A stretch of DNA of 64,000 nucleotides from a virus: IMG/VR virus record IMGVR_UViG_3300045988_130366, one strand, 5' to 3'. The notes under the pieces were generated by a model, which did not search any database, was not told the origin of the DNA, and saw nothing but the letters and a program-made list of their open reading frames with translations. How positions within the stretch are numbered: position 1 is the first letter of the stretch; each line of letters starts with the position of its first letter. The translations under genes and the position numbers were made by a program. Below are positions 3,945 to 45,938 of the stretch, piece by piece.

Positions 3945-4691
3945 ATGCCTATTAAAGATATTTCAAATCAAAAATTTTATAGATTAACAGCACTTTATCC
4001 CACAGAAAAAAGAGATAAAGATAGAAGCGTAATTTGGCATTGTAAATGTGAATGTGGAAATGAAGTAGATGTATCTGGAAAAAAATTGCGTCAAGGAAAT
4101 ACAAAATCTTGTGGTTGTTTAAATACTGAAACTCGAGCCGCATTAGGCAGAAGTAATAAAAAAGATTTAACTGGCATGACATTTGGCAAATTAACAGTTA
4201 TTGAAGATAGTGGAGAACGCTATGATAATAATATCTTATGGCGCTGTCAATGTGAATGCGGGAATCGTCCATTAATTAAAGGAACTTCATTGTTACATGG
4301 AGTTAAGTCTTGTGGATGCTTAAAATCAAAAGGAGAAGCTCGTATTGCTGAATTATTAACTAAAAATAATATTCCTTTTGAAACTCAAAAAACATTTGAA
4401 GATTGTTTATTTCCAGATAATAACTATCATGCTTATTTTGATTTTTGGGTAGATAACAAATACTTAATTGAATATGATGGTATTCAACATTTTAAAGCAA
4501 GCGATAATCTTAAAAGCTGGAATACAGATATTAATTTAATAGAAACTCAGCAAAGAGATAAATTTAAAAATGATTGGTGTATTAAAAAAAATATCGCTTT
4601 AATAAGAATTCCCTATACTAAATTAAAAAGTATTACAATTGAAGATTTAATATTAGAGACTTCCCAATTTAATATAACCACTCAAGATTAA
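3945..4691 (+). CDS. putative endonuclease: two Cys-rich repeats (WxCxCECGN…SCGC) fused to Vsr/DUF559-like (PD-(D/E)xK-type) C-terminal domain
   Basis: Tandem WHCKCECGN…KSCGC / WRCQCECGN…KSCGC modules; C-terminal YFDFWVDNKYLIEYDGIQH motif resembling DUF559/Vsr nucleases; RBS AAGGAG upstream of ATG 3945 (upstream ORF start at 3882 lies inside the terminator hairpin). Confidence 0.55.
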   Translation: MPIKDISNQKFYRLTALYPTEKRDKDRSVIWHCKCECGNEVDVSGKKLRQGNTKSCGCLNTETRAALGRSNKKDLTGMTFGKLTVIEDSGERYDNNILWRCQCECGNRPLIKGTSLLHGVKSCGCLKSKGEARIAELLTKNNIPFETQKTFEDCLFPDNNYHAYFDFWVDNKYLIEYDGIQHFKASDNLKSWNTDINLIETQQRDKFKNDWCIKKNIALIRIPYTKLKSITIEDLILETSQFNITTQD

Positions 4692-4708
4692 TTTATAAGG
4701 AGAAAAAC

Positions 4709-5095
4709 ATGGAAATTATTTATTTTGAAGTTAATGATTGGAGTCCAGGAAAAGATTGTCCAGATTGTGAGCCATTTGATACTTGGTTAGATGTTGATAA
4801 TTTAACTTTTAGAAATGAACAATGGTTAATTGAAAATAAAATTATTGCAGTTGAAACAATAATTGATATGTCATTAAATTATTGCGTTACAGCTCCAAAA
4901 GAATGGGTTGAGAAAAACTGTCCTTGTATTTTAAATTCTAAGTTTATTAGAGAACCAAATGAAAATAATGAAATATTTGGAAGATTTGGTTGTCCCTTTA
5001 AATCTTATACTGAAGAAAATTTAGGATACTGGTTTGCGGGCTGGGATGAATTTGAAAACTGGGAACCTAAACGAAAAGATGAAATAGAGTCTTAA
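4709..5095 (+). CDS. hypothetical protein
   Basis: ORF with RBS AAGGAG. Confidence 0.45.
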   Translation: MEIIYFEVNDWSPGKDCPDCEPFDTWLDVDNLTFRNEQWLIENKIIAVETIIDMSLNYCVTAPKEWVEKNCPCILNSKFIREPNENNEIFGRFGCPFKSYTEENLGYWFAGWDEFENWEPKRKDEIES

Positions 5096-5113
5096 AAGAC
5101 TCTATTTTTTTTT
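5085..5113 (+). terminator. rho-independent terminator
   Basis: AGAGTCTT-AA-AAGACTCT hairpin + T9. Confidence 0.75.
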
Positions 5114-5214
5114 GTGCCAGAAAATTCGGGCTCGTAGGCGCCCTCAGCGGTCGTTGCTGCTTAAAAATCGCACCCACCAATTTTTTTTAGCAAAATGTCC
5201 CCTTTTTGATTTTC

Positions 5215-5250
5215 CCTTATTTTTGTGATATAATATTTTTATATAATATA
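5215..5250 (+). promoter_or_regulatory. sigma-A-like promoter with extended -10 (TGTGATATAAT)
   Basis: TGnTATAAT element upstream of RBS AAGGAGG and ATG 5264. Confidence 0.45.
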
Positions 5251-5263
5251 AGGAGGACTTGAT

Positions 5264-5722
5264 ATGAAACAAGAACCTAAGTTCTACTGGGATGATACTA
5301 CTAAAACTGCAACTTGCATTTTAGCAGATGGAAATAATATATTTACTGGTATTGCCAGTGTACATCCAGATGATATGGATATGGCTAATGAAAAGACTGG
5401 GTATCAAATTGCTTTATGGAGAGCAGAGATTAAATATTATACTCATATTCGTGATAATGAATTAAAGCCAGCTCTTAAAGCATTAAAAAAAGTATTGGAT
5501 GAAATGAAATATAGTAAAAAGTTTAATCCAAAATCTTATGAAAATAGGTCTTTGCAGAGAAACTTCTATCAAATAGAATCTGACTTAGATACAGTTCGTG
5601 ATTTGCTAACTCACACTAAGCAAAAACTTAAACAGTATATCTCTGAAAAAGAAAAATTCTATCAAAAAATTAGAGCCAATAGAACAAAGAAGGACGATGT
5701 AGGACAAAAACCTTCAATTTAA
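5264..5722 (+). CDS. hypothetical protein
   Basis: ORF with strong RBS. Confidence 0.45.
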   Translation: MKQEPKFYWDDTTKTATCILADGNNIFTGIASVHPDDMDMANEKTGYQIALWRAEIKYYTHIRDNELKPALKALKKVLDEMKYSKKFNPKSYENRSLQRNFYQIESDLDTVRDLLTHTKQKLKQYISEKEKFYQKIRANRTKKDDVGQKPSI

Positions 5723-9630: not shown

Positions 9631-11139
9631 ATGTCTGAGAACTATGGTGTAAAAGACATAAAAACTTTGGAAGGTATCGAAGCCATCAGGCTTAGACCTG
9701 GTATGTATATAGGCTCAATCGGACCAGATGGAGTTAGACATATTACTCTTGAAATTATTTCTAACGTAATTGATGAGTATTTAAACGGATATTGTACAAA
9801 GTGTAATATTGAGGTAACAGAAGATGACATGGTAAAAGTTTCTGATGATGGACGTGGTGTTCCTTTTGGAAAGGCGGCAGATGGTTCAGAAACTCTTGAA
9901 AATATTTTTACAAAGCTTCATACAGGAGCTAAATTTGATAGTTCTGGTAAAACTGGATATAATACATCTGGTGGTATGAATGGTGTTGGTGCAAAAGCAA
10001 CGAATGCATTGTCTGATAAATTTATTGTCACTTCCAAAAGAGATGGTAAAATTGCAACAATGACATTTGAAAAAGGTGAAAGAAAAGATTTTAAAGTTGA
10101 AAAGTATGCAGGAAAAGATACTGGAACAACTATTACTTTTCATCCCGATATTGAGATTTTTAAAGAAGGAATCTCACTTGATTATGAAGAATTAAAAAGA
10201 CAGATTCAGGAATTAGCATATCTTTCTCCTGGATTAACTTTTACATTAAAATATAAAGACAAAGCTGAAGATGTAATTGTTTCTCAGAATGGTATTCTGG
10301 ATTATATTCAAGATTTGAATAAAAAGAAAAATACTATTACATCTGTTTTTTATGCCGAGGCTTCCGAAGATAGAATTGGCGTAAAATTAGCAATGCTGTA
10401 TAACGATAGTTATACTGATACTTATAAATTATATACAAACTCAATTCCAAATACAGCTGGAACTCATCTTACTGGATTTAGAACTGCATTAACTTCTGCA
10501 ATTAATAATTATGCAAGAGAGAATAAACTTCTTAAAGAGAAAGATTCTAATATTGTAGGAGATGAGTTAAAAGAAGGTCTTGTATTAGTTCTTTCTTTTG
10601 TGATGCCAGACCCAGTCTTTTCAGGTCAGACAAAAGAGAAACTTGATTCAAGTGAAGGACGTACAATGGTCCAAAAGCTGGTGTCAAAAGAGATTGCGAT
10701 TTGGCTTGAAAGCCATCCGAATGATGCAAAAGCAATTATTAATAAGGCTTTATTGGCACGTGCCGCAAGAGAAAAAGCTAAAAAAGCTAAAGAGACAGTT
10801 CGTAAGGCGGATGTGAAGAAAAGAGCAGTAATGCCCGGTACATTAGCAGATGCAAGTTCTCGAAATAGAGCTTCTTGTGAAGTGTTTATTGTAGAGGGAA
10901 AGTCTGCTGCCGGTTCAACAAAAGAAGCCAGAGATAGAGCTACCCAGGCTGTGTTCCCCGTACGAGGAAAGATTCTTAACGTATTGAAGGCAGACCTTGC
11001 GAAGGCGTTAAAGAACGCAGAAATTGATGGTATGATTACTGCTTTTGGACTTGAAATTAAGGACGGAAAAGTAATTGTAAATAAAGATAAATTGCGTTAT
11101 GGTAAAATTGTTATTACAGCCGATGCGGATGTAGATGGT
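9631..11139 (+). CDS. gyrB: DNA gyrase subunit B, exon 1 (ATPase, transducer and TOPRIM up to …ITADADVDG)
   Basis: GyrB N-terminus (LEGIEAIRLRPGMYIGS), GHKL ATPase motifs, TOPRIM EGKSA(A)GS…, ends at DADVDG codon GGT (exon ends in U). Confidence 0.85.
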
Positions 11140-12229
11140 CAAATGTGGGCCAGTGAAAAACTTTTCGCTTAATCATCAAAGCGGGTATAAAATTTTTTGG
11201 TTAGAGATATTATATGTGATATGTACATTCATCATATAATATTGAGAAGAAAAGATTTTATGCTAACGGGGAAGGGTTATTAACTTAATCCCGTGGGAAA
11301 CTTATATTAATCCTTTCTTCTTAATATAATAATTAAGGAGAAATAAAAGTGATAGGTATATATAAAATTACAAACCTTGTAAATGGTAAAACTTATATTG
11401 GACAAAGTAATAATATAGAAAGAAGATTTAAAGAACATCAACAAAAAGGAGAATTGAGTAGAATTCCAGTTGATATTGCAATTAAAAAATATGGAAAAGA
11501 TATGTTTTCTTATGATATAGTTGAAGAATGTAAGTTAGAAGAATTAAATGAAAAAGAAACATATTGGATAAAAAAATATCATACAAAAGAAGATGGATAT
11601 AATTGCAATGACGGTGGGAGTTTTCAATCTTCTGGAGAAAATAATGGTAGAAGTAAATTAACCGAAAAAGATGTTATTTTAATTAGAAAAGCTTATAACA
11701 ATCATAAGAAACAATCTGAAATATATGAATTATTTTCTGATAAAATTTCTTTTGGACATTTCCAAAATGTTTGGCAAGGAAAGGTTTGGAGTAATGTAAT
11801 GCCAGAAGTTTTTACAGAAGAAAATAAAAATTATTATATCTATAAAAATAGTCAAGGACAAAATGGAAAAAATTCTAATCTTACAGATGAAGAAGTTATA
11901 AAAATAAGAAAAAGATATGTTAAAGAATCTGCAAGAGAGATTTATGAAGACTATAAGGATATAATGTCTTATCAAACTTTACAGCAATTATTATGGGGAA
12001 GACATTATTCTCATTTACCAATTTACAAGAAAAAAGAGAAAAAATGGATTAATATTTGAACCTGTATCGACTATCCCCCAGGCCTTTTGGGCGGGGGAGT
12101 AGGGCTGCTATTGATACGCAGCCAGGTTTTAGGAAACGAAGCCTGTTAAAAGCCGAAATGGTTTCCTTGATAAAATAAAATTTATCAAGTAAAAGATAGT
12201 CAGTGCCAATAGTAATATTGGAATAAATG
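11140..12229 (+). mobile_element. group I intron (gyrB intron 1) carrying GIY-YIG homing endonuclease ORF
   Basis: Interrupts DVDG|SHIR of GyrB; 3' core GTATCGACTATCC…CTATTGATACG…AGATAGTCAGTGCCAAT…AAATG ending in omega-G immediately before exon 2. Confidence 0.8.
11349..12059 (+). CDS. GIY-YIG homing endonuclease (intron-encoded, I-TevI-like)
   Basis: GIYKITNLVNGKTYIGQS…ERRFKEH motif; GTG start with AGGAG RBS; two NUMOD-like repeats. Confidence 0.85.
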   Translation: MIGIYKITNLVNGKTYIGQSNNIERRFKEHQQKGELSRIPVDIAIKKYGKDMFSYDIVEECKLEELNEKETYWIKKYHTKEDGYNCNDGGSFQSSGENNGRSKLTEKDVILIRKAYNNHKKQSEIYELFSDKISFGHFQNVWQGKVWSNVMPEVFTEENKNYYIYKNSQGQNGKNSNLTDEEVIKIRKRYVKESAREIYEDYKDIMSYQTLQQLLWGRHYSHLPIYKKKEKKWINI

Positions 12230-12407
12230 TCACATATTAGAGCGTTATTTTTAACCTTTATTTGGAAATTTGCTCCGCAATTAATTGAAGATGGATATAT
12301 TTATGCGGCAGTTCCTCCACTTTATAAAGTTACACAGGGAACTAAAATTACTTATCTAAAAGATGATGCGGCTCTTGAGGAATTTAGAAAGACAGCTAAA
12401 AAGTCTT
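12230..12407 (+). CDS. gyrB: DNA gyrase subunit B, exon 2 (SHIRALFLTF…GYIYAAVPPLYKV…TAKKS)
   Basis: Canonical GyrB PPLYK region; ORF 12227-12433 of the six-frame track = this exon plus read-through into intron 2. Confidence 0.75.
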
Positions 12408-13464
12408 TTGAGCTGGGTCGTATGAAAGGGTAAGAGATAGTCTGGCCCTTATCCACTTTTCCTCTAATCAGAGGGGTTATTATCTTAGATAATAGCTAAC
12501 GAGGCAGTCTTCAAAATATTTTGGGTATTTCAGGAAATCCTGAAATGGATAAAACTTAAATATTCTTGGAGATAATCTCGTGGGAAAAAACTATAAGAGA
12601 TTATCTTACATTTTATTATGTGAGGTATTCAATATGATAGGAATTTATAAGATAACAAACAAAATTAATGGAGATGCTTATATTGGACAAAGCACTCAAA
12701 TAGAAGAAAGATTTATAGAACATAAAAATCCTACAAATTGGGCAAGAGAATCTAATAAAAGTCTTTATAAAGCATTTATTCAATTTGGATTACAAAATTT
12801 TGATTTTTCCGTTTTAGAAGAATGCAAAAAAGAAGAATTAAATGATAAAGAACAATATTGGATTGGATATTATAGTACATATCCTAATCAATATAATATG
12901 ACTCCAGGAGGACAATTTAATGCAGGTGAATGTCATCCAAGTCATAAATTAACTGAAAAGGATGTGATTGATATTAGAACGAGATATAAAAATCACGAAA
13001 GAAAAAAAGACGTTTATTTATTATATGCTCATTTAATTGGGGAATCTGGCTTTCATAAAATTTGGAATGGTTCAACATGGAAAACAATAATGCCAGAAGT
13101 TTATACAAAAGAAAATAAAGATTTTCATGCTCATAATACTTCAAATGTAGGTTCTAAAAATGGAAGGTCTAAATTAACAGAAGAAGATGTTAAAAATATT
13201 CGCTTAAGAAAGAAAAATGGAGAGCAGTTATCTTCCGTTTATAATGATTATTCTGACAAATTAACTTATAAATCTTTTGAAAATGTTTGGTCTTATAGAA
13301 ACTGGAAAAAAATTATAGTTTAAGCCTGTATCGACTATTCCCTTTGTCGGGAAGTAGAAATACTATTGATACGTATTTCAAAAAGGTGGACATGATGAAG
13401 GCAGTTAATACGTTAGCCGGAGTGAAGAAATAGTCAGTACCAATGGTGACATTGGAGTAATACG
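12408..13464 (+). mobile_element. group I intron (gyrB intron 2) carrying GIY-YIG homing endonuclease ORF
   Basis: Splits …KKS|LGEMDP… (GyrB YKGLGEM motif restored on splicing); 3' core GCCTGTATCGACTATTCC…CTATTGATACG…AATAGTCAGTACCAATGG…AATACG omega-G. Confidence 0.7.
12580..13323 (+). CDS. GIY-YIG homing endonuclease (intron-encoded)
   Basis: GIYKITNKINGDAYIGQS…ERFIEHK motif. Confidence 0.85.
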   Translation: MGKNYKRLSYILLCEVFNMIGIYKITNKINGDAYIGQSTQIEERFIEHKNPTNWARESNKSLYKAFIQFGLQNFDFSVLEECKKEELNDKEQYWIGYYSTYPNQYNMTPGGQFNAGECHPSHKLTEKDVIDIRTRYKNHERKKDVYLLYAHLIGESGFHKIWNGSTWKTIMPEVYTKENKDFHAHNTSNVGSKNGRSKLTEEDVKNIRLRKKNGEQLSSVYNDYSDKLTYKSFENVWSYRNWKKIIV

Positions 13465-13652
13465 TAGGCGAGATGGACCCGTCCGAAATGGCTGAAACAG
13501 TTATGAATCCAGAAACCAGAACTCTTAAACAAATATGTATGGAAGATGCAGAAGAAGCTGCTAAAACTTTCATGGGATTGATGGGTGAGTCGGTTGTTTA
13601 TAGAAAGAAATTTATCGAAGAGAATGCATGGAGAGCAAATATTGACGTATAA
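13465..13652 (+). CDS. gyrB: DNA gyrase subunit B, exon 3 (C-terminal LGEMDPSEMAETVMNPETRTL…FIEENAWRANIDV*)
   Basis: Unmistakable GyrB C-terminus; total spliced length 1875 nt = 624 aa. Confidence 0.75.
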
Positions 13653-34356: not shown

Positions 34357-36881
34357 ATGAGCAAAAAGTGGTTTAATTGTCATAACCATACAGAGTATTC
34401 AAACTTACGTCTTTTGGATTCAACCAATCACCCAAAAGATTTAATCAATAAAGCAATCGAATTAGGACTTAGTGGTATCTGTATAACTGACCATGAGGCC
34501 CTTTGTGCGCACGTTGAAATAAATAAAATTGCAACAGAGTTAAGAGAAACAAATCCTGATTTTGTGATTGGATTAGGAAATGAGATTTATTTAACTGATA
34601 CAAGAAATCATGGTCAGAAATATTATCATTTTATTTTGATTGCTAAAGATGCAATCGGTCATAAAGCGTTAAGAGAGTTAAGTTCTACAGCTTGGTATTA
34701 TTCATATATGGATAGAGGTATGGAAAGAGTTCCAACTTTAAAAGATGAATTAACTGAGATTGTAAGACATTATAAAGGTCATTTAATTGCAACAAGTGCA
34801 TGTATTGGTGGAGAATTATCTTCATGGTCTTTATTATATGCAGAAGCATTAAAGGTAAATGACCAAAAGATGGCAATGGAGTTTCAGAAAAAGATTCAAG
34901 ATTTTATGAATTTTGTTCTTGATTTATTTGGAGATGATTTTTATATTGAATGTGCTCCATCTAATAAAGAAGATCAAATGACTGTAAATTCTCAGTTGTT
35001 TAAAATTGCAACTGCATATAATGTTAAAATGGTTGTTGGAACTGACTCTCATTATTTAACAAAAGAAGATAGAATGGTTCATAAAGCATATCTTAATTCA
35101 AAAGGTGGAGAGCGTGAAGTTGATGACTTTTATGAATTTGCCAGACTTATGGATAGCGATGAAGTGGAAGAATTATTATCTCCATGTTTTCCAGATGGAT
35201 ATGTAGATGTAATTTTTGAAAACACTTTAGATTTACAAAATAAAATTGAATATTATAGTCTTTTTCATAAGCAGGATATTCCATCTGTAGAAGTTAAAGA
35301 TTATCCAAAAGTAAGAGGATTTAAACAATATCCACATTTATCTGCAATGTTAATGGATGATGATATTCAGAATCGTTATTGGGTAAATGAATGTTTAAAT
35401 CAGCTTGAAAAACTTGAAAAAATTAATGATAGACGTTATCTTGATGAGCTTGAAGAAGAAGCACGAGTTAAAAGTATCATTAGTGAAAAACTTGAAACAA
35501 ATATGTTTCGTTATCCAAATACACTTCAGCATTATATTGATATGATTTGGGATTGCGGTTCAATGGTAGGTGCTGGTCGTGGTTCCAGTTGTGCCGCGCT
35601 TAATCATTACCTTATGGGAATTACTCAGTTGGATCCTATTGAATGGGATTTACCTTTCTTCCGTTATCTTAATGAAGAGAGAATTGAGCTTGGTGATATT
35701 GATATTGACATATGCCCGTCTAAACGTCCGGAAATTCTTCGTAAAATTAAAGAAGAGCGTGGAAAGATGTTCTATGATAATATCATGGAATGGGCAAAGA
35801 AAAATCTTGGATGTACTCTTGTAGCAACATTCGGTACAGAAGGAACCAAATCTGCAATTCAGACAGCTTGTAGAGGTTATAGAAGTGAGGATTATCCAGA
35901 AGGAATTGATGTTGATGAAGCTCAGTATATGAGTTCATTAATTCCAGAGGAAAGGGGTTTTTTATGGACAATTAAAGAAGTTGTTTATGGAAATCCAGAA
36001 AAAGGTCGTAAACCTGTTAAGACATTTGTAAATGAAGTAAATAAATATCCAGGTTTATTGGATATTATTGTAGCTATTGAAGGTCTTGTAAACCATAGAG
36101 GCTCTCATGCATCTGGTGTAATTTTATTTGGAGATGACCCATTTGAGCATAGTGCTTTTATGAAAACTCCAAAAGGTGAGATTACTACTCAGTTTGACTT
36201 ACATGATGCAGAGTATATGGGATTAACAAAATATGATTTTCTTGTAACTGAGGTTCAGGATAAGTTGGTTCAAACTATTCAATTACTCCAAGAGGATAAT
36301 GAAATTGAGCCAGAATTAAGTTTGCGGGAAGTCTATGATAAATATTTTCATCCTAATGTTTTACCTTTAAATGATCAAAAGATTTGGGATGCATTGGGTA
36401 AAGTATCTGTTATTAATACTTTCCAGTTTGATTCTCAGGTTGGTGCGCAGGTTGCAAAGAAATTAAAACCTCAGAATGTATTGGAAATGGCGGATGCGAA
36501 TGGTCTAATGAGACTTATGGGCGAAGATGGAGAAGAACGCCCAATGGATAAATATTATCGTTTTAAACAAAACATTCAGTTATGGTATGATGAAATGACA
36601 AAATTTGGTCTTACCAAAGAAGAGCAGAAAACTCTTGAACCTTACTTTAAGAGTTCTTATGGAGTTCCGCCTTCACAGGAACAGTTAATGAGAATGTTGA
36701 TGGATGATAAGATTTGTCACTTCAGTCTTGGAGAAGCAAATGCGGCTCGTAAGATTGTTGGTAAAAAGCAGATGAATAAAATTCCAGCTTTGCATGAAAA
36801 GGTATTGGCACAGGCGGCAAGTGAGAAGCTTGGCCAGTATGTATGGAAATGTGGAGTTGGCCCGCAGATGGGTTATTCATT
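34357..36881 (+). CDS. dnaE: DNA polymerase III alpha (DnaE-type), exon 1 (PHP, palm, fingers up to …QMGYSF)
   Basis: PHP motif CHNHTEYS…ITDHEAL, DnaE palm/fingers similarity, ends in conserved GYxF of the GYGFNKSH region; exact 5' splice site +/- few nt. Confidence 0.75.
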
Positions 36882-38115
36882 TAGCGTTGTGTAAATGGCG
36901 CTTACACACTTAACCACTTATCGGTGGGGTAATTAAAACATTAATATATTTGGCAAATATAGTTTTAATTGCTAACGAGGGTAAAATCTCGTGACAAATT
37001 TCTTTAATAGAGGTATAGTGTTTTTCATTTATACATGAGAACAATAGCCATGTATAAAGGAGAATATTTATGTATTATATTTATAAATTCACAAATAAAA
37101 CAAATGGTAAGATTTATATTGGGCAAACTAATAATATTCAAAAACGAAAAAATGGTCATAGAAGTGATTCTTTTAATGAAAAAAGTTCTGGATATAATTT
37201 ACCATTTCATTCTGCAATAAGAAAATATGGTTGGGATAATTTTAATTTTGATATTCTTGAAGAAATATCAGATGGAGAGTCTCAAGATTATATTGATGAA
37301 AGAGAAATTTTTTTCATTCAATATTATCATTCTTTAAAAGACGAAAATGGATATAATATTTCTATTGGGGGTCAAGGATATAAAAGACAACCCTTAACTT
37401 ATGAAGAAAGATTGAATCTATCTAAGTTATTTAAAAAAGAAGAGATTATTGATATTCAAAATCGTTTAATGAATGATGAAGAATATGATGATATTGAAAA
37501 AATTTATTATCCTAAATTAAAACGAACATTTTTAGTCAATATAAATACTGGAACAAATTATTTTAATGAAAAATTTGATTATCCTTTAAAGAAAAATTCC
37601 AGAAGTCGTTTTTCTCAAAAAGAAATTCGAGAAATAAAAGATAGAATTAAAAGTGGAGAGAAATATAAATCCATTCAAGAAGATTTTAATATTAAATCCG
37701 CAGGATTTTTATCTATGATAAATACTGGAAAATATTTTTATAGTAATCAAGATACATATCCACTTTGTGATAAAGGAAGTAATAAAGCTAAAAATGAAGT
37801 TTGGGTTCAAGGTATTATAAAAGATATCTTAGAAACAGAATTATCATTAAAAGATATTTCTAAAAAATGGAATAAAAGTTACGCTACAGTTAAAAATATT
37901 AACTCTGGTCGTTCTCATAAAAAAGAAAAATATAAATACCCTCTTAGAGATAATAAATAAATCTATTAAAAGAAAAATGTTGTATCGACTATCCTGGGTT
38001 AGACCGGGAGTACTGGAACTATTGATACGTTCTGGGAAATAGTGTGCGGATAAGGGGTATGCCAAAACCTCACTACAACATCCGTAAAAAATAGTCAGTA
38101 ATTTAAAAAATTATG
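36882..38115 (+). mobile_element. group I intron in dnaE carrying GIY-YIG homing endonuclease ORF
   Basis: Shared core TGTATCGACTATCC…CTATTGATACG…AATAGTCAGTAATTT…TTATG omega-G; exon 2 resumes (F)IHALAYSFIGVQTLY matching DnaE [13 protein letters not shown]. Confidence 0.7.
37070..37960 (+). CDS. GIY-YIG homing endonuclease (intron-encoded)
   Basis: YIYKFTNKTNGKIYIGQTNNIQKRKNGH motif. Confidence 0.8.
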   Translation: MYYIYKFTNKTNGKIYIGQTNNIQKRKNGHRSDSFNEKSSGYNLPFHSAIRKYGWDNFNFDILEEISDGESQDYIDEREIFFIQYYHSLKDENGYNISIGGQGYKRQPLTYEERLNLSKLFKKEEIIDIQNRLMNDEEYDDIEKIYYPKLKRTFLVNINTGTNYFNEKFDYPLKKNSRSRFSQKEIREIKDRIKSGEKYKSIQEDFNIKSAGFLSMINTGKYFYSNQDTYPLCDKGSNKAKNEVWVQGIIKDILETELSLKDISKKWNKSYATVKNINSGRSHKKEKYKYPLRDNK

Positions 38116-39511
38116 TATACACGCTTTAGCTTATAGTTTCATTGGTGTTCAAACATTATATATTGCAACAAATTGGAATCCTATTTATTGGGATTGTGCA
38201 TGTTTAATTGTAAACAGTGGTTCACTTGAAGATAATAGTGAGTTAGAGATTGATGAGGATAATGAATCTGAATCTATTTCCGTGAAGAAAACAGCTTCAA
38301 CTGATTATGGAAAAATCGCAAAGGCGATGGGTGAAATTATATCTGCGGGAATTAAAATGAGCCTTGTTGATATAAATAATTCAGATTATGGATTTAAACC
38401 TGATGCTAAAAATAATCAGATTCTTTATGGAATGAAAGGTTTATTGAATGTCAGTGATGCGGTAATTGATGATATTATCAAAAATAGACCTTATATTTCA
38501 CCTAAAGACTTTTTATTAAAAGTGCGTCCAAATAAACAGGCAATGATTTCACTTATTAAAGGTGGAGCATTTGATACAATGATTGACCGCAAGATTTGTA
38601 TGGGTTGGTATATTTGGGAAACTTGTGATAAGAAGAAACGAATTACTTTACAAAACATGGGAGGTTTGATTAAATATAATCTTCTTCCAGAAAAAAATGA
38701 ACAACAGATTATGGCGAGAAGAGTTTATGAATTTAATCGTTATCTAAAATCTGTTTGTAAGATTAAAGGTGATACAACTAATTATCATATAGATGATAGA
38801 GCAATGAATTTTTTGATTGAAATGGAACATGATGATTTATTAGAGGGTTATTCTTTAAATATGAAAGCATGGGACAAAGTATATCAGAAATGGATGGATG
38901 TATTCAGAGAGTGGATTGCGGAAGAAAAAGAACAGATTCTTCAGAACTTAAATGAAAAAATCTTTAAGGATGATTGGGATAAATATGCTCAAGGAACTTT
39001 ATCAGCTTGGGAAATGCAGGCATTATGTTTCTATTACCATGAACATGAATTATCTCATGTTGATACTCAAAGATATGGTTTTGTTGATTTTGATAAGCTG
39101 CCGCAAGAACCTATTGTAGAAAGAACATTTACAAAAGGTGCAAAGCAAATTAATATATTCAAATTGAATAAAATTTGCGGAACTTGTATTGCTAAAAATA
39201 AAACTAAAAGTACAGTAACTATATTGACAACTTCTGGAGTAGTTAATGTTAAATTTAGAAAAGAATATTTCTCATTATTTGATAAGCAGATTTCTGAAAA
39301 ACAAGAAGATGGAACTAAAAAAGTTCGAGAAAAATCTTGGTTCAATCGAGGAAATATGATTATAGTAATGGGCATTAGGTCAGGGGATGATTTCATTTCT
39401 AAGAAATATGCTTCTTCTAATGGACATCAATTATATAAGATTGATAAAATTAATGAAGATGGAAGTTTGGAAATTAGAAGTGATAGATACCAAGGAGAAG
39501 ATGTTTTTTAA
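38116..39511 (+). CDS. dnaE: DNA polymerase III alpha (DnaE-type), exon 2 (C-terminal: HhH, beta-binding region, OB fold)
   Basis: …IHALAYSFIGVQTLYIA… then DINNSDYGFKP / GMKGL (cf. DnaE DINRSD…GLGAIKG). Confidence 0.7.
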
Positions 39512-39892: not shown

Positions 39893-40461
39893 TAGGTTCT
39901 TATAAAATTCTTGCCATTATTGGAGAAGCTGGTAGCGGAAAAGATACTCTTATGCAAGAGGTTTTAAAAGTTAATCATAATCTCCATGAGATAGTTAGTT
40001 TTACAACAAGACCTCCAAGAGAAGGAGAAAAAGACGGAATTAATTATCATTTTGTTTCTGGTGAAGAATTTGCAGAAAAGCTTCTGGCAGGTGAAATGCT
40101 GGAAGCTGCCTGCTTCAATGATTGGTTTTATGGAACTGGTTTTGGCTCATTGCGCTCTGATTGTGTTAATATCGGAGTCTTTAATCCAGAAGGAATTGAT
40201 AGTTTAATGGCTCATAAAAATATTGAGATTGTTGTATATTATGTAACTGCTAAAGATAAGACTCGATTATTGCGGCAATTGAATAGAGAAGAAAATCCAA
40301 ATGTTGATGAAATTATTAGAAGATATAAAGCTGATAAAGATGATTTTGCTGATTTAGATTTTCATTATAATGAAATAGTAAATGAAGATAGAAAAGATAT
40401 GAACTTCAATGTGAAAGTTGTATCTGCTGCGGCACAGCGGTTGGAGAACAGGATTGGATAA
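39889..40461 (+). CDS. guanylate-kinase-family (d)NMP kinase
   Basis: P-loop GEAGSGKDT, …SFTTRPPREGEKDGINYHFVS… guanylate kinase signature. Confidence 0.7.
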   Translation: MIGSYKILAIIGEAGSGKDTLMQEVLKVNHNLHEIVSFTTRPPREGEKDGINYHFVSGEEFAEKLLAGEMLEAACFNDWFYGTGFGSLRSDCVNIGVFNPEGIDSLMAHKNIEIVVYYVTAKDKTRLLRQLNREENPNVDEIIRRYKADKDDFADLDFHYNEIVNEDRKDMNFNVKVVSAAAQRLENRIG

Positions 40462-40520
40462 TTTATCCATCACAAAAACCATATATAGTGTTAAGACTTA
40501 AAAAATTTTACTAAATATAG

Positions 40521-41816
40521 ATGGAGGGATACAATATGTTAGAAGTTCAAAAACGAAATGGTGATATTGTCCCATTTGATAAAGAAAAAATTATTGATGC
40601 AGTAAACAGAGCAATGATTGAAGTAGATAAAATCCTTTATGAGACAGATACTTCAGAAGATATTGCTACTGAAATTGAAGAAATGGCTAAACGCTCTAAG
40701 ACAACTATTTCTGTAGAAACTATTCAAGATTGTGTAGAAGATTTATTAATGCAATCTGAAAGAAGAGATGTTGCAAGAGCGTATATTCGTTATAGATATA
40801 AACAAGAAGCAAAGAGAGAGCATGAGGCAGTTTTTGTTAAAACTTATAGTGAAAAATTGGAAGCCCGCAATGTTCAAAATCAAAATGCTAATGTAGATGA
40901 ACACTCTTTTGGCGGACGTATGGGTGAAGCAAGCTCAGTTATGACAAAGAAATATGCTTTAGATTATATTGTATCTAAAATGTCAAGAGATAATCATTTA
41001 AACAATGAAATTTATATTCACGATTTAGATAGTTATGCTGTTGGAATGCATAATTGTTTGTCATTACCTATAGATGATTTACTTAGAAATGGTTTTAATA
41101 CTCGTCAAACTGATGTTCGTCCTGCTCAATCTGTTAATACAGCTTTTCAGCTTTTGGCAGTATTATTTCAGTTACAATCATTACAGCAGTTTGGAGGAGT
41201 ATCTGCTACTCACTTAGATTGGAGCATGGTTCCTTATGTTCGTAGAAGTTTTTATAAGCATTTCTTAGATGGCATTAAATATTGTCAAAAAGGTCAGATG
41301 CTTGGATTAGCTGGAACTTATGAAGATTTTGATTTATCTAATGCAAAAGAGGCGTGGATTAAAGCTGATGCTTCTATTAATGATGATGTATTTGTTAGAA
41401 ATGAAGCAGCTTATCAATATGCCGTAGATATGACAATAAAAGAAACTTATCAAGCTGTAGAAGGAATGTATCATAATCTTAATACATTACAATCTCGAAG
41501 TGGAAACCAGTTACCTTTTACTTCTATTAACTATGGTACATGTACTTTACCAGAAGGAAGATTAGTAACAGAGGCTTTATTAAATGTATCTATTAAAGGT
41601 ATTGGAAAGCTTCATAAAACTTCTATTTTTCCTTGTGGAATTTTCCAGTGTATGAAAGGAGTCAATCGTGAAGAAGGAGACCCAAATTACGATTTATTTA
41701 AACTCGCATTACGTTCAACCGCCACAAGACTGTACCCAAATTATGCTAATGTCGACTGGTCTGGAAACGCAGGATATGACATCAACGACCCTCGTACCTA
41801 CTTCTCTACAATGGGT
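40521..41816 (+). CDS. nrdD: anaerobic ribonucleoside-triphosphate reductase NrdD, exon 1 (ATP-cone … YFSTMG)
   Basis: ATP-cone VQKRNGDIVPFD, IYIHDLD…HNC, ends at …TMG just before conserved radical-loop Cys (cf. E. coli SPMG|CRSF). Confidence 0.8.
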
Positions 41817-42706
41817 AAGCGAAAACTCAGCCCATTTAAAATCTTTTGAACTGTGCTAACAGGTGTTTATATATTCTAATATATAGGCTAACGGTTAGGT
41901 CTTAATGACTTTGCAGTTTGTTGTTAAGATGAGACCGTGCTAAGATTCATTATAATATTCACACATAGAAGGAGGCTATATGTGGATATATAAAATAACA
42001 AATATTCAAAATAATAAAGTTTATATTGGTCAAACAATACGACCAATAAATCAAAGATTTCATCGGCATTTGAATGATGCTATCAATAATATTTTAGATA
42101 CACACTTTGCCAGAGCAATTAGAAAATATGGTAAAGATAATTTTATCATAGAAGAAATTGATACCGCTCAAACTCAAGATGAATTAAACCAAAAAGAACA
42201 ATATTGGATTAGATTTTATAATTCAGTTGAAGAAGGATATAATGAAACAGATGCAATATCTAAGTGCGGGGGTAATACATATCGTTCTAAAACTGAAGAA
42301 GAGATGGAAATTATCAAAGAAAAAATTCGACAAACAAAAATAGGTACTAAAAACCCTATGGCACGAAAAATTAAACGAACAAACATTATTACTAATGAAG
42401 TAGATATATTTAATACTGTTATTAGTTGTGCTAAAGCTTGTGGAATTAAAAATGGTAAAACATCTATCTCAACAAGATTAAATGGACAAATAAAAAGTCC
42501 TTATAAAAATACTTGGATTTTTGAATATTATAATGAATAAAGTGTATCGACTATCCCTGATGAATGTATGGGAGTAGGGACGGAGATAAGCACCGTCGTT
42601 GTTTTAGGAAACGAAGCAACTGAGAACCGAAGCGGAAGACAACTCTATTTACTTTTAAATAGAATGATAATATAGTCAGTGCTGATGGTGACATCAGATA
42701 AACACG
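41817..42706 (+). mobile_element. group I intron (nrdD intron 1) with GIY-YIG homing endonuclease ORF
   Basis: Core GTGTATCGACTATCC…; 3' end …ATATAGTCAGTGCTGATGG…AACACG omega-G; splicing joins MG|CRTANGYDINGFGQLKDGRGN (cf. MGCRSFLGVWENENGEQIHDGRNN). Confidence 0.75.
41980..42540 (+). CDS. GIY-YIG homing endonuclease (intron-encoded)
   Basis: MWIYKITNIQNNKVYIGQT…RFHRH motif. Confidence 0.8.
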   Translation: MWIYKITNIQNNKVYIGQTIRPINQRFHRHLNDAINNILDTHFARAIRKYGKDNFIIEEIDTAQTQDELNQKEQYWIRFYNSVEEGYNETDAISKCGGNTYRSKTEEEMEIIKEKIRQTKIGTKNPMARKIKRTNIITNEVDIFNTVISCAKACGIKNGKTSISTRLNGQIKSPYKNTWIFEYYNE

Positions 42707-43225
42707 TGCAGAACTGCCAATGGGTACGATATTAACGGTTTCGGTCAGTTAAAAGATGGACGTGGAAATATTTGTCCTGTAACAATTATTTTACCTACAT
42801 TAGCAATGGAAGCTAAACAGAACTTTATGTCTCAATATGCTTTAACTGGCGAAGATGCAAAAGAAGCTTTTGCAGTTGAATATTTCATGACTCTTTTAGA
42901 TGAAAAAATTCATCAGGCAAAAGATATGTTGATTGAACGCTTCGATTGGATTTGTTCTCAGGATGCTTCTGCCGCAGTCTTTATGTATGAGAATGGCACA
43001 ATGAAGGGGTATATTCCAGAGGAAGGAATAAGAAGCGCATTAAAACATGGAACTTTAGCGGTAGGTCAGTTAGGACTCGCTGAGACTCTTCAAATTCTTA
43101 TTGGCACAGACCATACGACTTCAGAAGGAATGAAACTGGCTAAAAGAATTGAACAGTTATTTAAAGATAGATGTGCGGAATTTAAAGAAGAATATAAGCT
43201 TAATTTTGGTGTATATTATACTCCT
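42707..43225 (+). CDS. nrdD: NrdD exon 2 (CRTANGYDING…ILPTLAMEAK…VYYTP)
   Basis: Matches E. coli NrdD DGRNNLGVISLNLPRIALEAK block; ends at …YYTP (cf. LYSTPSENLC). Confidence 0.75.
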
Positions 43226-44198
43226 AAACTTTTCGGATTGGGAGTCGCACAAGTGATTGTGTGAAAAAACAACTCTGTTAAACGGGCAATCGTAATAAGA
43301 TGATAAGAGAGACTAAACCTGTAATAAGGCAAGTTAATCCCGTAGGGTAAATTCATTGGACACAAGTTTTCAGTCGTGTATAATAAAAATTCATATAATA
43401 TAGAAGGAGAGTGAATTTTTTTATGGCACGTAGAAAAATGACAGATAAATTAATTAAAAGAAGTCAAATTAATGAAGAAATACGATTAATTAATGGAAGT
43501 GAAACTGATTATATTTCTTCAAAAGGTAATATTTATAAAGATTATGGAAATGATTTATTTTATCCCAAAGCAAATTTTATAAATAAAAATAATGGATATT
43601 TATATTCCAGTATAACTTATCCAGAAGGACAAAGACAAAGAAGAGTGCATATTTTAGTTGCAGAAGCTTTTTTGCCTAATCCAAATAATTATACAGTAGT
43701 AATGCATAAAGATAATAATAAAGCAAACCCTGAAGTATCTAATCTTGAATGGGGGACTAATTCAAAAAATACTAAAGATGCTTATAAAGATGGTCTTGCT
43801 AAAAATGATAAAAGCTGGGATGATAATCAATCAATTCATATTTGTAGTTTTGATTTACAGGGCAACCTATTAAAGATGTATGGCTCTGTAGGAGAAGCTT
43901 CAAGAGAATTACACGTTACAAAAACAACAATATTAAATCAATGTAATCACAATGTAAAAACAAAACCTCGTTGTGGATATTGGTTTAGATACTTGACTGA
44001 ATACAAAACCAATGGATTTGTTCTCTAACGACTATCGAAAACATAGTTATAAAAGAAATATTTATAATGAAGAAGTGAGTAGAGTAGGATATTATATCCG
44101 AAAGACAGAGCTCTTATTATTTGGTAATAGGATAATAAGATGATAATATAGTCTAATCCCCTTTTTTATGAAATATCGGGAAACCGAGGGTTCGAATG
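43226..44198 (+). mobile_element. group I intron (nrdD intron 2) with HNH-type homing endonuclease ORF
   Basis: 3' end …AATATAGTCTAATCC…GGGTTCGAATG omega-G; joins YYTP|AENLCYK. Confidence 0.7.
43411..44028 (+). CDS. HNH-family homing endonuclease (I-HmuI-like, with AP2-like DNA-binding C-terminus)
   Basis: …VHILVAEAFLPNPNNYTVVMHKDNNKANPEVSNLEWGT… HNH_3-type motif; RBS GAAGGAG. Confidence 0.65.
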   Translation: MNFFMARRKMTDKLIKRSQINEEIRLINGSETDYISSKGNIYKDYGNDLFYPKANFINKNNGYLYSSITYPEGQRQRRVHILVAEAFLPNPNNYTVVMHKDNNKANPEVSNLEWGTNSKNTKDAYKDGLAKNDKSWDDNQSIHICSFDLQGNLLKMYGSVGEASRELHVTKTTILNQCNHNVKTKPRCGYWFRYLTEYKTNGFVL

Positions 44199-44717
44199 GC
44201 CGAAAACCTTTGCTATAAAGCTTTAAAGAATTTTAAAGCAAAATATGGAGTAATTGAAAATGTAAGTGATAAAGAGTTTTTTACTAATTCAATTCATGTT
44301 CCAGTTTGGAAAGAAATGTCTCCATTTGAGAAGATTGATATTGAGTCTCAATTAACCGGTTATTCATCTGCGGGATGTATTACTTATGTTGAATTAGATT
44401 CTGGTATTAAAAACAATCTTGAAGCATTAGAGCAAATTGTAAATTATGCTATGGATAAAGACATTCCATATTTTGCAGTTAATGTACCAAACGATACATG
44501 TCTTGAGTGCGGATACACAGATGAATTTAATGATAGATGTCCTATCTGCGGAAGCACTCATATTCAACAGCTTAGAAGAGTTACTGGATATTTAACAGGA
44601 AATTATAAAACTGCTTTTAACCTTGGTAAGCAAGATGAAGTTGAGCATCGTGTTAAACATGGAGGAAAAAGAGAATGGGCGCAGATAAAACCTGGCACGA
44701 CAAAGAAGAATACTTAA
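44199..44717 (+). CDS. nrdD: NrdD exon 3 (…ENLCYK…Zn ribbon CLECGY…CPICG…glycyl-radical RRVTGYLTG…)
   Basis: C-terminal Zn ribbon and glycyl radical motif RVxGY; spliced total 2334 nt = 777 aa. Confidence 0.8.
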   Translation, partial: AENLCYKALKNFKAKYGVIENVSDKEFFTNSIHVPVWKEMSPFEKIDIESQLTGYSSAGCITYVELDSGIKNNLEALEQIVNYAMDKDIPYFAVNVPNDTCLECGYTDEFNDRCPICGSTHIQQLRRVTGYLTGNYKTAFNLGKQDEVEHRVKHGGKREWAQIKPGTTKKNT

Positions 44718-44872
44718 AACAAGCAAAAGAATGCAGATATTGTAGAGAATTAGATGCAGATGATACTTTATATATGGCAAATGACTGGGATGGTGGAATA
44801 GGATTTGAATATATCAGACATATTAAATACTGTCCTATCTGCGGCCGCAAGCTTTTTAATTGGGAGGAATAA
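44675..44872 (+). CDS. small CxxC zinc-ribbon protein overlapping nrdD 3' end
   Basis: CRYC…CPICG in alternate frame; overlaps nrdD by 43 nt; uncertain. Confidence 0.3.
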   Translation: MGADKTWHDKEEYLKQAKECRYCRELDADDTLYMANDWDGGIGFEYIRHIKYCPICGRKLFNWEE

Positions 44873-44877
44873 TTATA

Positions 44878-45357
44878 ATGCGTTATGCAGGAATTATTAA
44901 AAATGATTTTTCTGCCGCTCCTGGAACAAGTGTAACTTTTTTTACACAGGGTTGCCCTCACAGATGTGAGGGTTGCCATAATCCAGAGACTTGGGATTTT
45001 GAAGGCGGAGAAGAAGTCACTCATGATACTATTTTAGAGGTTATTGAAGCTATTACTGCTAATGGATTACATCGTAATTTATGTATTATGGGAGGAGAGC
45101 CTCTTTGTCCAGAAAATCAATTTTTGACTAATTTAATTATTAATTCTGTTAAAGAAAAACTTCCTGACACTAAAATTTATTTATGGACAGGATATTGTTT
45201 AGAAGATTTAGATATGAGTAATAATAGAGTTAAATCAATACTTGAACAAGTAGATTGCCTTATTGACGGTCCTTATGATAAAACAAAAAGAGATGTTTCT
45301 TTATTTATGAGAGGTTCATCTAATCAACGAATTTTATATAAGGGAACTGATTATTGA
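44878..45357 (+). CDS. nrdG: anaerobic RNR activating protein NrdG (radical SAM)
   Basis: GCPHRCEGCHNPETW cluster, …IMGGEPL…; RBS GGGAGG before ATG 44878. Confidence 0.85.
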   Translation: MRYAGIIKNDFSAAPGTSVTFFTQGCPHRCEGCHNPETWDFEGGEEVTHDTILEVIEAITANGLHRNLCIMGGEPLCPENQFLTNLIINSVKEKLPDTKIYLWTGYCLEDLDMSNNRVKSILEQVDCLIDGPYDKTKRDVSLFMRGSSNQRILYKGTDY

Positions 45358-45410
45358 TTTTCTAAAAAAAATATGATATTATATACTTATAAATGATAAG
45401 GAGATTAAAA

Positions 45411-45938
45411 ATGAAACATATTAAAGATAATAAAGAATTAGATGAAATTAAAGAGCCAGAAGATGGCCAGATTGTATATAATGAAACAGATGAAAGTTAT
45501 TTTATCTATAAAAATGAAAAATGGTTTCCAGTAGAAGCTCAAATGACTTCTCAGGGACTTGAACTTAATTTATATGAATTAAATAGAAGTATTATTGAGC
45601 AACTTCCAGATTATGAAGATTCTCAATGGGAAGGTGCTGAAAAGATTTTTGGTGATTGGTTAATGGAACAGTCTTCTACATATTATATGCTTTATGGTAG
45701 AGAGATTAATTACTTTACAATCTTTAAGAAAGGAAACATCGGAGAGTCAGATTTCGCAACATTCTGGGATGGACTTAAAGAATGCTTAACTGCGCTTGGT
45801 ACAGTTCGTTCTATCGGTGTTAATAAATTAGAAGATGGTAGTGCTTCTTCTGTCGAAATCTGGATTAAATATAATGATGTAGTTACTTGCATGTATTTAT
45901 TTAATTACGATGAAGGTATTGTAACTTATGAACAGTAA
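45411..45938 (+). CDS. hypothetical protein
   Basis: RBS AAGGAG; promoter TATGATATTAT upstream. Confidence 0.45.
   Translation: MKHIKDNKELDEIKEPEDGQIVYNETDESYFIYKNEKWFPVEAQMTSQGLELNLYELNRSIIEQLPDYEDSQWEGAEKIFGDWLMEQSSTYYMLYGREINYFTIFKKGNIGESDFATFWDGLKECLTALGTVRSIGVNKLEDGSASSVEIWIKYNDVVTCMYLFNYDEGIVTYEQ

Follow-up and report, generated by a model that had tools for sequence, protein, structure and literature searches.

Among the ribonucleotide reductase (RNR) genes of phages, nrdD is the one most often split (PMC3653736), and an nrdD with two introns is a well-known kind of phage feature. In phage T4, the nrdD intron (sunY) belongs to subgroup IA, has P7.1 and P7.2 helices and carries the GIY-YIG endonuclease I-TevII. 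Dwivedi et al. 2013 (PMC3653736) describe a non-coding nrdD intron in the Lactococcus phage 949 group, and in the jumbo gut (Jug) phages nrdD lies in up to four fragments through group I introns and endonuclease genes, with metatranscriptome reads that support splicing (PMC12880540). For other RNR genes, the part of PMC3653736 that cites Landthaler 2002 and Lazarevic 1998 describes two group I introns in nrdE of Staphylococcus phage Twort and introns in bnrdE and bnrdF of Bacillus SPbeta, some of which encode HNH endonucleases and adjoin conserved functional residues. Here we describe nrdD of a low-GC gut phage, IMG/VR virus record IMGVR_UViG_3300045988_130366, of which a stretch of 64,000 nucleotides (nt) was analysed (hereafter the window). 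Coordinates refer to the window unless another genome is named, and the exons, introns, intron reading frames and nrdG all lie on its plus (+) strand. Judging from the sequence, we hold with high confidence that two independent group I introns, each with an endonuclease open reading frame (ORF), interrupt this gene, and that their splicing would restore one NrdD protein. Intron 1 occupies 41817..42706 (890 nt) and intron 2 occupies 43226..44198 (973 nt).

Intron 1 resembles the T4 sunY intron in gene, in subgroup and in endonuclease family, and the two cores are homologous. The 32-nt J6/7-P7-P7.1 block of sunY (window region 42541-42573) is 97% identical to that of the intron 1 family, falling to ~59% over the core, and the sunY guide, GCUCAU, is also that of many family members, while the window copy has GCCCAU. 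The two differ in place and in layout: sunY is inserted at T4 codon ~180, after UAUGAGU, and not at the finger-loop cysteine (T4 Cys290); its ORF lies 3' of the core, whereas that of intron 1 lies in the P6 loop; and its core has no counterpart to the pair of hairpins found between P3 and P4 in intron 1. Lactococcus phage 949 (L235 in our collection, 2503-2815), like its relatives, has a homologous intron at the exact site of intron 1 (...VPMG|CRS...), 72% identical over the 5' core, but without an endonuclease ORF, and its TP|AE site, where intron 2 lies in the window, holds no intron.

The closest cultured relatives of the window are the Thomasclavelia phages TR-TP1 and TR-TP2 (PQ571309/PQ571310), with 69.6% amino acid (aa) identity in NrdD; a megablast search of the window against cultured phages gave a single match, a 446-nt exon match to TR-TP1/2. 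Their nrdD is also split near the Met-Gly-Cys codons by an insert with a homing endonuclease, but this insert belongs to another intron lineage, carries an HNH ORF and is inserted 4 nt 5' of the position of intron 1 (AU|G GGU UGU). These phages have no intron at the second site, and GenBank gives the TR-TP2 exons as two separate coding sequences (CDSs). We found nothing on nrdD in the literature on TR-TP1/2. Segments of the intron 2 core are similar to introns in phages of Staphylococcus, Enterococcus, Listeria and Bacillus. The Twort and SPbeta introns, in contrast to the window introns in class III nrdD, interrupt the class Ib genes nrdE and nrdF at other sites, and the Jug phages are a different group, with genomes of 360-402 kb and Bacteroides/Phocaeicola hosts.

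Exons of nrdD and the natural alleles that fix their junctions

An earlier note on this DNA had divided nrdD into three exons, and every coordinate and peptide string that it gave was recovered in the sequence, with intron-less alleles that match the joins. Exon 1 (40521..41816, 1296 nt) encodes the ATP-cone and the N-terminal half of the barrel and ends ...YFSTMG, with ATG GGT for Met431-Gly432. Exon 2 (42707..43225, 519 nt, 173 codons) starts with TGC AGA (CRTANGYDINGFGQLKDGRGNICPVTIILPTLAMEAK), where TGC encodes Cys433, and ends ...VYYTP, with ACU CCU for Thr-Pro605. Exon 3 (44199..44717, 519 nt, 172 codons and a stop) starts with GCC GAA AAC (AENLCYK); it encodes AENLC..., a Zn ribbon with four cysteines (CLECG...CPICG) and the glycyl-radical motif RRVTGY with Gly735. 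By the ORF map and the sequence, the three exons are colinear and all in phase 0, and joined they comprise 777 codons and a stop.

The joined exons encode a full-length class III ribonucleotide reductase NrdD. The protein covers positions 2-562 of the 562 in the Pfam family NRDD (E=1.2e-143), a match well above anything expected by chance, with further matches to the ATP-cone (2.7e-19) and Gly_radical (2.2e-9) families. Compared with class III RNRs, the check which the earlier note had suggested, it is colinear with solved NrdD structures, and in the alignment with NrdD of Prevotella copri (8P23; E=5e-121) it is gap-free at both junctions (ATMGCRT and ATPAEGL). In an alignment with T4 NrdD, reconstructed from NC_000866, Cys433 of the window corresponds to T4 Cys290 and Gly735 to T4 Gly580, and the two proteins share an identical TPAENLC block. 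In place of the E. coli block given in the earlier note, we verified its T4 equivalent (VSPMGCRSF...DGRNNLGVVTLNLPRIAL; LYSTPAENLC).

Intron 1 is thus placed at the codon of the radical-loop cysteine, as had been proposed: it lies between the codons of Gly432 and Cys433, directly 5' of the codon for the finger-loop thiyl cysteine. Endonuclease-bearing introns are well known to occupy the most conserved catalytic motifs, and this pattern, also raised beforehand for the present gene, fits here. The finger loop holds the conserved radical cysteine and, two residues upstream, a methionine that is also implicated in catalysis (PMC4493059). The ATP-cone, Zn ribbon and RRVTGY motif that had been listed for the spliced product are all present, but its length of 777 aa probably needs revision. 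The likelier start is ATG 40536, because a Shine-Dalgarno sequence, GGAGGG (40523-28), lies 8 nt upstream of it, and the product would then have ~772 aa; ATG 40521 is without a Shine-Dalgarno sequence. Homologues of nrdD begin aligning at about residue 6.

Close relatives of the gene were collected by a protein-guided scan of IMG/VR. In three of them (L003, L008 and L015; 97-99% aa identity), nrdD is uninterrupted and 2331 nt long. The spliced joins predicted for the window exons are ...ACAAUGGGU|UGCAGAACU... and ...UAUACUCCU|GCCGAAAAC..., and the three uninterrupted alleles carry exactly these joins, as TCTACGATGGGA|TGCAGAACTGCC and TATACTCCG|GCCGAAAAC. The intron-less contigs are syntenic with the window across 12 kb at 94-97% nt identity, with 41817-42706 and/or 43226-44198 cleanly missing. 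Since near-identical alleles exist without the inserts, both junctions are fixed to the nucleotide; alternative junctions are impossible because the bases at both ends of each insert differ.

The two introns are present or absent independently of each other. Besides the three alleles with neither intron, one has intron 1 only (L110), five have intron 2 only (L084, L104, L089, L112 and L099), and both introns are found in the window and in L102, whose nrdD is more divergent (~75% aa). The window exons are intact, with 97-100% protein identity to the intron-less alleles. The exon base at position -1 is T in all alleles that bear the given intron and A or G in all alleles without it, and synonymous differences flanking each junction are linked to the presence of the intron. 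Such presence/absence polymorphism in near-identical phages supports mobility of the two putative introns.

Group I structure and endonuclease reading frames

On the evidence of their sequences, we assign both inserts to the group I introns of phage IA type. In each, the last exon base is a U that forms the U·G wobble closing P1 with the internal guide sequence (IGS), and the 3'-terminal intron base is a G (omega G; 42706 in intron 1 and 44198 in intron 2), which is kept in all aligned homologues. The core helices were all located in both window copies, comprising the P3-P8 and P4-P6 domains, the P3/P7 pseudoknot and J8/7-P7 with a GAUAUAGUC-like S element. Both introns also have two covarying hairpins, P7.1 and P7.2, between the 5' strand of P7 and the 3' strand of P3; in the classification of Michel & Westhof, these extra helices define subgroup IA.

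In intron 2, of IA type, P1 pairs the exon sequence ACUCCU (43220-25) with the IGS GGGAGU (43240-45), and P10 pairs UUUUCGG (43230-36) with CCGAAAA of the 3' exon (44200-06). The remaining helices are P2 (43246-63), P3 (43273-77 with 44106-10), P4 (43283-86 with 43339-42), P5/P5a/P5b (43289-335), P6 (43358-64 with 44017-23), P7 (44030-34 with 44149-53), P7.1 (44046-68), P7.2 (44087-99), P8 (44112-40) and P9 (44158-90). When the shared core motif CGACTATC ... GATAATATAGTC was used as a search pattern, 36 viral loci matched, and most of them hold a homologue of intron 2 inserted at its site in nrdD, among them ORF-less copies of 329 nt (L101) and 334 nt (L092). On an alignment of twelve ORF-deleted homologues (alignment A1), we tested a hand-derived structure with P1, P10, P2-P5, P5a, P5b, P6, P7, P7.1, P7.2, P8, P9 and P9a. 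For the covariation count, P3/P7 was entered as a pseudoknot with separate brackets, and in P5b and P7.2, which MAFFT misaligned, only anchored outer pairs, or none, were counted. Paired bases fill 97.5% of the cells, compared with ~40% when the partners are slid by 1-3 columns, and 24 of the 75 pairs are compensatory, compared with 1-5 after sliding. The U·G pair of P1 is present in 12/12 homologues. Across them, P1 changes from ACUCCU/GGGAGU to ACACCU/GGGUGU and ACGCCU/GGGCGU, and P10 from UUUUCGG/CCGAAAA to UUUUCAG/CUGAAAA and CUCGG/CCGAG, and from these co-changes it follows that the guide of intron 2 follows synonymous changes in the codons for Thr, Ala and Glu.

Intron 1 is of the IA2/sunY-like type. 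Its P1 pairs the exon sequence AAUGGGU (41810-16) with the IGS GCCCAUU (41830-36), and its P3 (41842-48 with 42633-39) is followed by the two extra hairpins (41851-62 and 41867-86). We further located P4 (41892-95 with 41934-37), P5 (41900-29), P6/P6a (41940-60 with 42523-42), P7 (42549-53 with 42673-77), P7.1 (42554-73), P7.2 (42579-97), P8 (42644-63) and P9 (42682-97). Homologues were sought with a P4-P5-P4' pattern, which matched at least 120 viral stretches; among the matches listed, most directly follow ...ATGGGT (Met-Gly), and wherever the 3' end was examined, the TGY AGR (Cys-Arg) of nrdD follows. The nrdD genes that host this family range from close relatives of the window gene to T4-like ones (...VSPMG|CRS...), and many of the intron copies are ORF-less.

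Alignment A2 of the intron 1 family comprises 17 sequences and 413 columns, in which the well-aligned helices P1, P3, the two extra hairpins, P4, P5, P6, P7, P7.1 and P9 were scored. Here 97.4% of the cells are paired (38-46% in slid controls), 27/46 pairs are compensatory, and the covariation score is 0.559, compared with 0.075-0.145 after sliding. The U·G pair of P1 is found in 16/17 homologues, and the guide sequence covaries with synonymous third-codon positions of the exon. P6a, P7.2 and P8 were misaligned by MAFFT and were counted only through anchored outer pairs, if at all. Support for P6a, a 15-base-pair (bp) helix (41946-60 with 42523-37), comes from direct complementarity and from L102, which has a different yet complementary 13-bp strand pair. 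The ORF-deleted intron 1 has a minimum free energy (MFE) of folding with z=-5.3.

A GIY-YIG endonuclease in intron 1 and an HNH endonuclease in intron 2 had both been named in the earlier note, and searches of Pfam bear this out. The ORF in the P6a loop of intron 1 (41980..42540, 186 aa), which follows a ribosome-binding site (RBS), GAAGGAGG, at 41968-75, matches GIY-YIG (PF01541, 2.4e-10) over its N-terminal residues 1-88, and its best likeness is to the catalytic domain of I-TevI (1MK0, E=6.5e-7). In intron 2, the P6 loop holds an ORF (43423..44028, 201 aa from ATG 43423; RBS GAAGGAGAG at 43403-11) that matches HNH_3 (3.8e-7) and, weakly, I-HmuI (1U3E, E=1.4e-3) over residues 71-190, the catalytic and C-terminal region. 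Both homing-endonuclease ORFs are full length, with the catalytic domain present and a strong RBS each. The last five codons and the stop of the GIY-YIG ORF form the 3' strand of P6a, and the final codons of the HNH ORF form the 3' strand of P6 in intron 2; an ORF end that doubles as the 3' strand of P6 or P6a is common in phage introns.

Splicing, homing and competing explanations

We propose that, after transcription, each intron RNA would fold into a group I core, with P1-P10 and the P3/P7 pseudoknot. An external guanosine would then attack the phosphate after the last U of the exon, held by the guide sequence in the U·G pair, and the freed exon would attack after the terminal G of the intron, joining GGU|UGC (Gly432-Cys433) and CCU|GCC (Pro605-Ala606). 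Both splices together would yield one messenger RNA that encodes NrdD, 772 or 777 aa long. This protein needs a partner in order to work, NrdG, the radical-SAM activase, whose gene lies just downstream (44860..45357; Pfam Fer4_12 2.4e-36, Radical_SAM 7.3e-11) and which would then activate the spliced enzyme. In a mixed infection, the endonuclease would be expected to cut an intron-less nrdD allele near the insertion site, and repair from the intron-bearing copy would spread the intron and, along with it, a few of the exon bases next to it. Homing into intron-less alleles at co-infection would explain both the mosaic distribution of the introns and the linked changes that flank them.

A number of observations weigh against the view that these are two functional group I introns. 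We infer splicing from sequence, as we do endonuclease activity and homing. P4 and P7 are invariant by search design, being part of the patterns with which the homologues were collected, and so are unable to show covariation. A search of Rfam with positions 40000-45500, and with intron 1 alone, gave no group I match at E<=10. In favour of the group I assignment, two ORF-less relatives match the whole Intron_gpI model (RF00028), though below its gathering score of 50: the intron 1 homologue L185 (31.5 bits, E=1.7e-6) and L087 (34.6 bits, E=2.9e-7), a copy of the second lineage, that of the TR-TP1/2 insert. In the window introns, ORFs of 560-600 nt interrupt this model. The P10 of intron 1 is weak in the window copy, with 2 contiguous pairs where the family consensus has 5. 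Intron 1 also has no P2 between P1 and P3, and between P3 and J3/4-P4 (41851-41886) lie two covarying hairpins and an invariant GGUGU, none of which the homologous core of T4 sunY has; the hairpins are atypical and have no assigned role, and a pairing partner for GGUGU, sought in the 3' end of the intron and in the P7.2 loop, was not found in convincing form. Finally, the MFE of the ORF-deleted intron 2 (z=-1.5) is unremarkable.

Some of these observations would also suit genuine group I introns that are now immobile or splicing-impaired relics, in an nrdD with poor expression or on its way to becoming a pseudogene. The weakened P10 of intron 1 in the window copy, the loss of the ORF from many family members and the indirect grounds for splicing and endonuclease activity all point this way, but we consider such decay improbable. 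In the window, every core helix is intact, neither endonuclease ORF is truncated or lacks its catalytic domain, and the exons are intact and close in sequence to intron-less alleles. Independent presence and absence in genomes that are 94-97% identical, moreover, indicates recent gain or loss.

Even less probable is a split of nrdD by free-standing endonuclease genes, with three polypeptides that are translated separately and then reassemble; the precedent is nrdA of Aeromonas phage Aeh1, split by mobE. Each insert does contain an endonuclease ORF with its own RBS, and the public annotation of TR-TP2 shows separate 'NrdD-like' CDSs. However, exon 2 begins with TGC and has neither a start codon nor an RBS, its first in-frame ATG (42806) being 33 codons in, and the ATG of exon 3 (44196) lies inside the 3' end of intron 2 without a Shine-Dalgarno sequence. 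The conserved and covarying group I structure of the inserts, guide sequences that pair with both exons, and ORF-less versions of both inserts at the same sites also argue for introns over free-standing genes.

The chance that the inserts stem from chimeric metagenome assembly is negligible: the window appears to be metagenome-derived and has no close match among cultured phages, but many independent contigs and samples have the same inserts, placed identically to the nucleotide, and cultured phages carry inserts too, Lactococcus phage 949 where intron 1 lies and TR-TP1/2 four nt upstream of it. The inserts might also be read as inteins, or remnants of inteins, that are excised from the protein. 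Inteins are known from phage nrdD, for instance in the RVCGY motif of Lactococcus phage 949, with others reported (PMC3653736), but here this reading is refuted by in-frame stops 11-13 codons into the inserts (41847-49 and 43262-64), and the inserts have no Hint/intein domain in a Pfam search, endonuclease ORFs in their own frames with their own RBSs, and covarying RNA structure.

Kinship of intron 1 and other interrupted genes

The interest of two group I introns in this nrdD is modest, and the known picture of how such introns work is unchanged. The interest lies in the breadth of the Gly|Cys intron family, in the kinship with sunY, in the occurrence of two lineages 4 nt apart and in the blindness of Rfam to these copies. 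The second lineage, unrelated to intron 1 and inserted inside the Met codon, was found in L001 (TR-TP2; 4605-5493), L087 (7958-8329) and L105 (949-1785); its cargo is an HNH ORF in TR-TP2, an uncharacterised ORF in L105 and, in L087, an ORF of ~9 codons, so that this copy is effectively ORF-less. The target hexamer of sunY, AUGAGU (T4 codon ~180), is near-identical to that of the intron 1 family, AUGGGU (Met-Gly-Cys finger loop). We tentatively speculate, while judging it rather unlikely, that the intron 1 family and T4 sunY are one ribozyme lineage that has colonised two nrdD sites, the change of site having occurred by reverse splicing under the guidance of the RNA and not of the endonuclease, and that, with a second lineage 4 nt away, the region of the thiyl-cysteine codon may be a hotspot that is hit repeatedly.

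The nrdD of Lactococcus phage 949 (2817-5066) also has an intein in its glycyl-radical motif, IQRV-[CFTGE...VKN]-CGYL. With its intron at Gly|Cys, both catalytic radical sites of that gene therefore hold mobile elements. More heavily interrupted nrdD genes were seen among the other relatives. L117 (3441-10683) has ~5-6 insertions, near aa 225, 320-330, 552, 605 and 638 in the numbering of the window protein (aa 552 being residue 120 of exon 2 and aa 638 residue 33 of exon 3), and in L115 (3453-7704) one further insert, ~1.1 kb long, lies near aa 170.

The Rfam group I model misses these introns, and for this reason records such as that of TR-TP2 list nrdD as 2-3 'NrdD-like' fragments and endonucleases. 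Surveys of metabolic genes in gut phages can thus miscount or discard an nrdD that is annotated in fragments. The alignments A1 and A2 could seed a better group I model.

Immediately downstream of nrdD, and overlapping its last 43 nt, is an ORF of 65 aa (44675-44872) with two CxxC pairs (CRYC...CPIC), which ends within the annotated start region of nrdG and gave no Pfam match. Upstream of nrdD, a third likely group I intron (36888-38115) with a GIY-YIG ORF (37070-37960) lies in a dnaE-like gene for the DNA polymerase III alpha subunit. The exon ORFs of this gene (34357-36894 and 38282-39511) would read ...GYSFSV|IHALAYSF... after splicing, and the core of the insert, CGACTATCC...AATAGTC, is at 37986-38096. 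L008, L006 and L007 share this insert, and it is cleanly missing from L003, L015 and L004. The nrdD locus is a clean natural case of intron mobility, in that near-identical genomes hold every combination of its two introns and of a third, that in dnaE.

Elsewhere in the window, a gyrB-like gene (9631-11172; HATPase, GyrB and Toprim) is followed by a region (~11173-13472) with two GIY-YIG ORFs (11349-12059 and 12580-13323), and after each of them comes a group I-like core, CGACTA...TAGTC (12068-12201 and 13332-13435). These ORFs and cores suggest two more introns, which would bring the number of endonuclease-bearing introns in the 64 kb to at least five.

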